Assembly (NCBI GenBank): GCA_964016885.1
Contig: OZ024740.1
Coordinates: forward strand, 45,198,001 to 45,262,000
Direction of reading: 5' to 3'
DNA length: 64,000 nt
Source: Eledone cirrhosa
Taxonomy: Eukaryota
Both the position numbers and the translations under genes were made by a program. Below are positions 25,508-27,830 of the stretch, piece by piece; positions within the stretch are counted from its first letter, which is position 1, and every line of letters starts with the position of its first letter. The notes under the pieces were generated by a model, which was given only the letters and a program-made list of their open reading frames with translations, was not told the DNA's origin and ran no database searches.

Positions 25508-25669
25508 GAGTTCGATTGGGAGACCCCGCCAGCACACCCACCACCATGAGTCAGCCAGTCTCGAGTGGTATCGTCCAGCGAAAGAAATGGAAATTAATTT
25601 TTCCGAGTACTCTAGGAACGTAGCTAGCTTTGGCCCCGGGATCGCTAGCGGGAACTCCACAATTTCGAC
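25508..25669 (-). ncRNA. Unassigned structured RNA motif, copy A
   Basis: Conserved core 25563-25612 inside a long GC-rich stem (cccgctagc/gctggcggg on the minus strand). Confidence 0.55.
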
Positions 25670-25791
25670 AGGCCATCGTCTATACCACGAATACTATTAA
25701 ATCATACATTAGGGCTTTATTTACGTGTCAGTAAGGCATGATACAGCTAATAGTCATGCCCAAACCTGGAGTTTGTAGGTACAAGTATAAA

Positions 25792-25945
25792 GTGGCGGCC
25801 AAAACAGGCGGCGCGGTGGGACCGGGGCAAAGCAAGCCGCTGCGAGTAATTTCATTTACCCAAAGAGGAGAAATATATTTTTCCGAGCACTCAAGGAAGG
25901 CTGAACTTTCCGTGTGCCCAGCGCGCAGCCGGGAAAAGCCACCAC
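25792..25945 (-). ncRNA. Unassigned structured RNA motif, copy B
   Basis: Core 25844-25892; stems gtggtggc/gccgccac, gcgcg/cgcgc, gggca/tgccc. Confidence 0.6.
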
Positions 25946-26411
25946 ACAAGTCGAAGGTAACAACCCAATGAAAAGTACAAATAGACCAAAATTATTTTAA
26001 AATCCCAGTTAGTCCGGGTTATAGGTAGTGTGGTTCTGAAAGGTGCATAATGACCTGAGTAAGGAAAAGTTAATTTTGGTCTATTTGCACTTTTTATTTA
26101 TATATATATATATATATATATATTTATATATATATTTATATATATATATATATATATATATATATATATATTTATATATATATATATATATATATTTATA
26201 TATATATATATATTTATTCAGGTTTGAGGTTCACCACTGTATAGAGCTGGTCTATTCCGTATGGTCAATCGTAATGCAATAATATAGAGAGTACTCAACG
26301 TAAAGCAGTTCAACCGTCTTTGTTTTTGTAGTTGGTGGTACTATTACGGAGTTAAATATTATAATGAGATGACAGGAGGCTGGATTTGTGTAAATCCTTG
26401 AAAGGTTTATT

Positions 26412-26469
26412 ATACTATGATCATTTCAATGACCGGGTTCCGTATGAATCCGGTGATATCATCAGGTAT
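26412..26469 (-). ncRNA. Type I hammerhead ribozyme (PLE type)
   Basis: Minus strand: ATAC-CTGATGA-tatcaccggattcatacggaacccggtcatt-GAAA-TGATCA-TA-GTAT, then aataaa. Confidence 0.8.
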
Positions 26470-27166
26470 TCGAAATATAATACGTGAATGTAATAGGTAA
26501 AATCCATGGGGCTGAAAATCGAGACCCGAGGGCGACCGCTATTCTGTTCCTTCAACCTCAGCCGGTCGCCCTGGAGTGACGTGGCTAAATTTTATAGTAT
26601 GCTACTACCAGTCAGATGAACGAAAACAGAAAGGGATGGGAGCATAAGTTAACGTCGATCCCATGACACAAGGTAAAAGAAAGAAAGAAAGGAAGGAGAG
26701 AGAAGAAGGGGGAAGAAAGAAGAAGAGAAGCCAGGGTTAATGTCAGCTAAAAGAGGAAAGCAACTACTACTGGTCAGATATAGGCAAGCAAGAGGGGGAA
26801 GGAAGATAAGTCTGCGGGAGGAAGACAGGAGGAGGGGAGAAGAGAAGGAAGGGAAGAGAGAAGTAGAAAAGTAAGGGTTGATGGCTACAAGAAGGAAGAT
26901 AGAAAGAAAGAGGAAGAAAGGTCGATATTAATGTCAGACCACAGTCAAGCCAGGAGTGGCGCGAGAAAATTTTCACAGGGACCCGCATCTTAGCAGAGGT
27001 GAATATATTGGGAGTCAGTGTGTTACAGTGTTTAGACTTCTAGGATGAAGTTAAAAAAATTAATAATCAATATTCAATATTAAAGAGGTTAGAAAATTTA
27101 AAGTTCAACAGTTTAACATTTAATTATATAATAGTTCCGATTTGTTCTGTAATTTAAAGGTACTAT

Positions 27167-27326
27167 GTGGCGGTTAAAACACCGGCCGCGCCCCGGGCCC
27201 CATGGCGAATTAAGCCACGCCGAGTATTTTCATTTACTGAAAGAAGGGGAAATTTATTTTTCCAAGCACTCCAGGTGAGCTCGTTCGCCAGGGAGCTGGT
27301 CGCGCCGCCATTAAAACCCAGCCAAC
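27167..27326 (-). ncRNA. Unassigned structured RNA motif, copy C
   Basis: Core 27222-27271; stems tggcgaa/ttcgcca, gctcc/ggggc. Confidence 0.6.
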
Positions 27327-27670
27327 AGTCCGACAGAAAGTTGGAACTTTAAAATTTTGCTTAGAGAAGTAAAAGAGTAATGGTTGATAGCTACAAGAAG
27401 GAAGATAGAAAGAGAGAGGAAGGAAGGTCGATATTAATGTCACACCACAGTCGGGCTAGGAGTGGCGCGACAAAATTTTCACAGGGACTCGCATCTTAGC
27501 AGAGGTGAATATATTGGGGGTCAGTGTGTTACAATGTTTAGACTTATAGGATGAAGTTAAAAAATTAATAAATTAATAATCAATATTCCATATTAAAAAA
27601 TTTAAAGCTCAACAGTTTCAGGTTGATATATCTAATAGTTCCGATTTGTTCTGTAATTTAAAGGTACTAT

Positions 27671-27830
27671 TTGGCGGTTAAAACACCGGCCGCGCCCCGG
27701 GCCCCATGGCGAATTAAGCCACGCCGAGTATTTTCATTTACCGAAAGAAGGGGAAATTTATTTTTCCAAGCACTCCAGGTGAGCCCGTTCGCCAGGGAGC
27801 TGGTCGCGCCGCCGCTAAAACCCACCCAAC
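27671..27830 (-). ncRNA. Unassigned structured RNA motif, copy D (tandem duplicate of C)
   Basis: Core 27726-27775; 504 bp from copy C. Confidence 0.6.

Follow-up and report, generated by a model that had tools for sequence, protein, structure and literature searches.

A conserved head-and-stalk motif in a long non-coding hammerhead element of Eledone cirrhosa, with a possible role in protein docking

We analysed 64,000 nucleotides of the Eledone cirrhosa genome (assembly GCA_964016885.1, contig OZ024740.1, positions 45,198,001–45,262,000), hereafter the window. Four copies of one motif, A to D, lie on its minus strand. Each comprises a short part of nearly invariant sequence, which we denote the head, and two flanking arms predicted to pair, which we denote the stalk; head and stalk together form the domain. 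The copies and the elements around them are listed below in window coordinates.

23642–25253, minus strand: 5′-truncated autonomous Hydra-clade Penelope-like element (PLE), with an endonuclease frame (24709–25254) and a hammerhead (23689–23755, core 23749), joined directly to the next fragment
25260–26075, minus strand: internal fragment of the older A/B subfamily of a non-coding family, its own hammerhead end absent here; elsewhere the sequence runs on into the hammerhead type found at 26412
25483–25694, minus strand: whole stalk-and-head domain A; 58 predicted stalk pairs; fold z −1.65, 13 of 200 shuffles folding as well
25563–25612, minus strand: head of copy A (downstream type); predicted three-way junction of the P2 closing stem, a P3 hairpin with an AAUNNA loop and a P4 hairpin with a 5-nt loop
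25779–25978, minus strand: whole domain B; 42 predicted stalk pairs
25844–25892, minus strand: head of copy B (upstream type); P4 with a private C>G change
26211–28691, minus strand: 5′-truncated copy of the non-coding 2.8-kb hammerhead element (young C/D subfamily of the same family), (TA)n-flanked, 96–97% identical to the full monomers L113 and L114
26412–26471, minus strand: type I hammerhead of the non-coding family, with a palindromic stem III and its core at 26465; 4,818 pattern matches in the genome
26857–27867, minus strand: direct duplication of about 505 nt at 92% identity, holding C and D
27134–27347, minus strand: whole domain C; 59 predicted stalk pairs; fold z −3.58, 0 of 200 shuffles folding as well
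27222–27271, minus strand: head of copy C, by core pattern, covariance model and fold
27638–27851, minus strand: whole domain D; 55 predicted stalk pairs
27726–27775, minus strand: head of copy D, by core pattern, covariance model and fold

The window also holds a third, minimal hammerhead core of another family (29910–29950, minus strand), a broken non-LTR retrotransposon with RVT_1 and zf-RVT domains that is unrelated to the motif (31183–34691, minus strand), and an inverted repeat of about 365 nt that is 82% identical to its own reverse complement and recurs in loci L005 and L006 (29338–29702).

A preliminary description of this DNA had pointed to four islands sharing one core, and this was confirmed: the core pattern matches the window four times, at 25562, 25843, 27221 and 27725, with none expected from 100 shuffles. 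A covariance model scores the four copies at 75–105 bits on the minus strand, the next-best match reaching 12.7 bits. The length given for the motif, about 155 nt, was too short, the predicted stalk domain spanning about 200–215 nt, and the four copies cannot be counted as four witnesses, since C and D share the 92% identical duplication. Throughout the 3-Gb genome the strict core pattern matches 1,254 sites (621 forward, 633 reverse; reversed control, none) and two looser patterns match 1,631 and 1,861. The expectation that the motif belongs to no known RNA family was borne out by Rfam, whose families include ribozymes, SRP, IRES, SECIS and xrRNA and which at the gathering score matched nothing in the window; in four loci searched with E up to 10, none of 71 weak matches overlaps any motif copy. 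ARAGORN found no tRNA gene in six loci, indicating no tRNA fold, unlike the head of a tRNA-derived SINE, and exact-pattern scans of metagenome and viral contigs gave no match. Some contigs from sequencing runs that bear the labels of other organisms contain pieces of the family, namely parts of a C/D-type domain (X4, X6) or a downstream-type head (X6, X10); they seem to derive from close relatives and do not extend the conservation to greater depth. Literature searches, with most subscription papers outside their scope, returned no described equivalent, and three 16-nt motif words had no match in the one text supplement of PMC8557442 that was compared. The motif is real and undescribed in Rfam and in the literature searched; its function we infer. 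To date it is known from a single family, which occurs in this genome and in the runs that seem to come from close relatives.

That family is non-coding. All four window copies belong to hammerhead-flanked units of 1.9–3.1 kb, which form an oversized retrozyme, and not to two Penelope-like elements as had been thought: the endonuclease frame comes from a separate element, whose end meets the A/B fragment at about 25255–25260 with some six unassigned bases between. Likewise, the arrangement of two copies upstream of the element's own 3′ hammerhead holds for C and D and fails for A and B, the hammerhead at 23749 and the endonuclease frame belonging to another family. Outside the window, 24 of 26 motif-picked loci (three overlapping pairs included) have the family's hammerhead end, of the type at 26412–26471, downstream on the same strand; the window endonuclease is matched in only one of them, at 35% identity. 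Nine hammerhead-to-hammerhead intervals comprise eight monomers of 1,904–3,102 nt and a rearranged piece that lacks the core. The core is present in all eight complete monomers, whose longest ATG frames encode 65–131 amino acids and within which no PLE protein match was found. The hammerheads at the unit boundaries are of type I, with core, palindromic stem III and stem I present. Most copies of the hammerhead family are short 3′ ends; five of 40 hammerhead-picked loci extend at least 740 nt upstream, and all five contain domain sequence. Units contain the domain one to three times, on the minus (RNA) strand and at a distance of 550–1,300 nt upstream from the hammerhead. No coding version of this hammerhead family appeared in 60 wide loci or in the 40 hammerhead-picked loci, a small share of the 4,818 matches.

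The insertions have the marks of Penelope-type mobility. Among 58 aligned 3′ pieces, collected with a query that favours the longer end, 41 stop about 255 nt past the hammerhead core and six about 113 nt past it, with (TA)n following in nearly every case; nine continue into another unit and two end elsewhere. Fixed tails, (TA)n targets and inverted arms are such marks (PMC11167929; PMC8557442). Between the distant monomers L113 and L169, alignable sequence is limited to the hammerhead region, one segment of about 120 nt and the motif domain. That segment corresponds to positions 395–518 of the L113 monomer, in the 5′ body, and is 66% identical between distant subfamilies. A GC-rich hairpin is also predicted about 55–115 nt upstream of the hammerhead core in all eight monomers (about 26520–26580 of the window, minus strand), with differing loop and stem sequences. 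Older subfamilies carry an upstream-type and a downstream-type copy about 280–300 nt apart, and the young C/D subfamily carries a newer 505-nt duplication of the upstream type. In this subfamily the upstream head has a 1-nt P3 deletion in 15 of 27 pairs, suggesting that one intact head suffices.

The joined neighbour represents the terminal part of a coding family that is abundant and has an 808-aa frame. In locus L051 this frame contains a CxCx5C linker, a DKT motif and endonuclease CxxC and CxH motifs, as in the Hydra clade (PMC8557442), and the family has its own hammerhead and (TA)n insertion. Hydra elements have been reported from Octopus. Pfam assigned no significant family to the 807-aa coding-family protein. 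Intact-looking frames of 803–808 amino acids occur in loci L051–L062, whose 3′ ends are fixed at about 94 and 190 nt after the hammerhead core. On its sequence, this autonomous family is a candidate source of enzyme for the non-coding element. It lacks the motif: the best E value was 1.8 in 12 long loci, and 11 shorter loci gave no match with filters off. The proposal that the motif is common to a coding PLE family and its parasites thus fails in all 23 coding-family loci; of the broader suggestion, a cis element of a microsatellite-targeting PLE family and its non-coding dependants, what survives is a conserved element tied to a Penelope-type, (TA)n-targeting family. A second direct junction, in locus L211 at about 2600–2720, joins the non-coding family to a different PLE family in the opposite order. 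Template switching would explain the two junctions, which show both orders and no (TA)n spacer; if so, Hydra-type enzymes copy the non-coding RNA, although two cases give a hint and no proof.

Judged from base changes in individual copies, the minus strand is the RNA strand of the motif, which agrees with the sense previously favoured and with that of the hammerheads. In L223, which is the same insertion as L198, A>G changes outnumber T>C by 118 to 4 over both domains, and in L233 by 28 to 3. This excess fits deamination of minus-strand RNA before reverse transcription and shows that RNA of that sense once carried the motif; on the fold it is silent, because editing extends to loops and unstructured spacer. 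In both copies the edited tract ends at a common position (reference about 2306–2308), about 270 nt 3′ of the downstream head.

On this strand the head is predicted to consist of P2 (GAGU/ACUC), which encloses P3 (GGAAA, loop AAUNNA, UUUCC) and P4 (3–5 bp, with a 5-nt loop containing an invariant U). Below P2, a 2-nt bulge leads into an irregular stalk of 39–58 predicted pairs, depending on the subfamily. The suggested architecture, a stem capped by two small hairpins in a three-way junction, is indeed the minimum-energy fold of all four window copies (42–59 stalk pairs), and it keeps the status of a prediction, covariation not being significant. Among 117 distinct copies, 101 fall into nine subfamilies of at least three members and 16 into small groups. 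The nine subfamily consensuses are 57–90% identical; the junction is the minimum-energy fold in seven and lies within 2.5 kcal/mol of it in the other two, and we infer a three-way junction from these models. The whole-domain fold has a more negative z on the sense than on the antisense strand in eight of nine subfamilies, and in most subfamilies shuffled sequences fold as well as an alternative 5′-arm hairpin. By itself the head has a weak fold (−5 to −11 kcal/mol), which suits an element stabilized by a protein or by the stalk. Two other assignments were rejected: a poly(A) signal, the AAUAAA loop becoming AAUUAA, AAUCGA or AAUUGA in downstream copies, and, by eye against the consensus folds, HDV-like, hammerhead-like and SECIS folds.

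Head and stalk appear to be constrained in different ways. When subfamily consensuses are compared, 54 of 815 head positions (6.6%) differ, as against 17–30% of flank positions, so that the head, loops included, is about three times more conserved, a difference that is partly built in because most copies were found via a core pattern. The preliminary description had made covariation a test of its proposal, and covariation in the head is not significant in any alignment, near-invariance leaving little power. In alignment A1 (32 copies) the score is reached by nine of 500 shuffles, a level that kinship alone can give; nine of the 13 consensus pairs in the head never vary and two show a double change. 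In the independent alignment A2 (88 copies from loci picked by 3′ words) the score is lower than the shuffled mean and is attained by 475 of 500 shuffles. Of 254 pairs that changed from one subfamily to another, 93 can still pair (chance expectation 90 ± 6), and 12 double changes preserve pairing where chance would give 14.8. Two comparisons that take a sister consensus as the ancestor, among them that of head and flanks, point towards structure but are biased, since an old inverted repeat decaying neutrally would give the same outcome.

For the stalk, a different comparison is informative. The earlier observation that the flanks differ in sequence but pair is right as to pairing; the flanks are nevertheless homologous and diverged, and not unrelated. 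Stalk pairs common to two subfamilies number as few as 0–30%, with many subfamily comparisons below 30%, and the arms re-pair in new registers after deletions, behaviour that would defeat column-wise covariation. The duplex between the arms has z values of −3.7 to −5.3 on the sense strand in all nine subfamilies (antisense, −0.7 to −4.7). Arms pair with their own partner better than with swapped ones, by 10.5 kcal/mol on average (antisense, 5.9), a value reached in 0 of 20,000 permutations, with the reservation that the nine subfamilies are related, not independent, and that template switching between arms could mimic co-evolution. This swap test avoids the sister-as-ancestor bias and is the only test here to address neutral decay. 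It supports co-evolution of the stalk arms, and in our reading the stalk probably needs pairing, not sequence, whereas the head needs sequence.

In the young subfamily, ten insertion ends fall within 30 nt just 5′ of the downstream head, of which one or two are probably not true ends. The set comprised 98 arms from 90 loci (of 216 matches found), picked by a word downstream of the motif; 2.05 ends were expected, giving P = 3 × 10⁻⁴ for nine or more, uncorrected for the many windows. The matching 30 nt at the upstream head contain no end among about 40 copies, and two other subfamily sets (57 arms, three unanchored rows having been dropped) have four ends in 87 exposures against about three expected, by hand count. 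We treat the cluster as an unreplicated lead.

Several known systems resemble parts of this picture. Metazoan non-LTR retrozymes (Cervera and de la Peña 2020, PMC7229834; bioRxiv 10.64898/2026.07.22.740005) are non-coding units bounded by type I hammerheads, occur in tandem or partial-tandem copies and are proposed to be moved by Penelope-like enzymes; the present carrier is, on its sequence, an oversized variant of them. It measures 1.9–3.1 kb against the 51–972 bp reported from a search of periods up to 1,000 bp (bioRxiv 10.64898/2026.07.22.740005), and the available parts of both sources describe no conserved internal domain. Hydra-clade PLEs (Craig et al. 2021, PMC8557442) match the coding neighbour in the CxCx5C linker, DKT motif, hammerhead and (TA)n targets, and the non-coding family in (TA)n targets, fixed 3′ ends and inverted 5′ arms; the non-coding family differs from them in having no open reading frame and another hammerhead and pLTR, and the motif is absent from the coding family tested. 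Alu RNA, also non-autonomous, uses a small structured domain that is proposed to bind a host protein (SRP9/14) and reach its partner's enzyme (bioRxiv 10.1101/2024.12.16.628748). The carrier differs from Alu in lacking similarity to SRP models and a poly(A) tail, in its hammerhead ends and in being much larger. Alu is a dimer, and its duplicated domain is comparable to that of the motif. The retroviral export elements RRE and CTE likewise combine a long imperfect stalk with a conserved protein-binding head and repeated sites, but no sequence similarity to them was found in Rfam.

We propose, at a probability of about one half, that the motif is an RNA docking signal for a protein, serving mobilization in trans in the manner of Alu or the RRE. 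A weak fold, an invariant head and a variable stalk, kept in every complete unit and duplicated twice, are most simply read as a protein-binding RNA signal. The variable paired stalk would present the invariant three-way head to a protein, and the docked protein would help the non-coding RNA to reach a Penelope-type enzyme in trans; it could be a host factor, acting in export, protection or delivery to enzyme-making ribosomes, or the reverse transcriptase itself. By analogy we favour a host factor over direct enzyme binding, because the motif is missing from the coding family tested and the start sites of reverse transcription lie 650 nt or more away from it. In vitro work on the single PLE so examined led to the proposal that the enzyme binds immediately downstream of the hammerhead, at the site where reverse transcription begins (PMC11167929). 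That the head instead binds and activates a Penelope-type reverse transcriptase, as a counterpart of telomerase RNA CR4/5 by which a non-coding parasite would capture a TERT-related enzyme in trans, is an analogy we consider quite unlikely. PLE reverse transcriptases are the sister group of TERT, and CR4/5 is a three-way junction, as the head is predicted to be, with a 4-bp P6.1 stem and 5-nt loop (PMC4993307) where the predicted P4 has 3–5 bp and a 5-nt loop, a likeness of topology. The invariant A between P6 and P6.1 of CR4/5 (PMC4993307) is lacking, however, the linker starting with C in upstream-type and A in downstream-type copies. No Rfam telomerase model matches the motif. P6 of CR4/5 is also far longer than P3.

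The main rival to docking, though in our view an unlikely one, is that the invariant head acts as DNA, in the role of a promoter or enhancer placed internally, within a CpG-rich island, and driving the downstream unit, with the stalk incidental or separate. Invariant sequence at fixed spacing without covariation fits a factor-binding site equally well, CpG observed/expected is 1.08–1.29 in the two domains against 0.58–0.77 in the body, Penelope has an internal promoter (PMC2377424), and dispersed start sites would give ends such as those that ten of 79 young-subfamily insertions have just 5′ of the head. Yet that cluster was not replicated in the other subfamily sets, and starts there would remove the 5′ arm of a maintained stalk; PLE promoters are described in the pLTR (PMC6765202), whose CpG ratio here is also high (1.13), and no Pol III A or B box was seen by eye against the consensus. 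The same ends are found 5′ of the head, at the point where an exonuclease would be halted if a folded or protein-bound head blocked 5′-to-3′ decay of the uncapped, hammerhead-cut transcript. Tandem flavivirus xrRNAs block such decay, and tandem three-way junctions would suit this role, but the cluster is spread over 30 nt and absent at the upstream copy as well as unreplicated, the head is weak alone, and no pseudoknot partner was seen by eye, so that we regard protection as rather improbable. A new self-cleaving ribozyme, a function raised in the preliminary description, is very improbable. Invariant junction and loop nucleotides would fit, and retroelements often carry ribozymes; the spread of ends, with no fixed single-nucleotide break point, argues indirectly against it, full-length copies continue across both heads, a hammerhead is already present in the element, and no Rfam ribozyme model matches. 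A translation element, raised there too, finds no open reading frame above 131 amino acids to serve. Finally, the domain could be an old inverted repeat, now functionless, carried by a successful hammerhead element: pair compensation equals chance, and Penelope-type insertions often make inverted junctions. We think this quite unlikely, given a head that is, loops included, roughly threefold better conserved than the flanks, arms that re-pair in new registers and, chiefly on the sense strand, pair best with their own partner, and a core kept in eight of eight complete monomers.

Were the head only a promoter box or a relic, the result would shrink to the annotation of one repeat family. As a docking signal, the head of about 50 nt would be a defined candidate for how protein-free hammerhead elements capture a Penelope enzyme, as the literature has proposed. 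The family makes such capture testable: nine variants occur naturally, in one subfamily one of the copies is damaged, and the same genome encodes an intact candidate enzyme of 808 amino acids. It also extends retrozymes from under 1 kb to 3 kb. Hammerhead units of another kind, with no covariance-model match to the motif, occur at 4970–8300 of locus L177, where seven tandem units of about 500 nt from a different hammerhead family are each followed by (TA)n.
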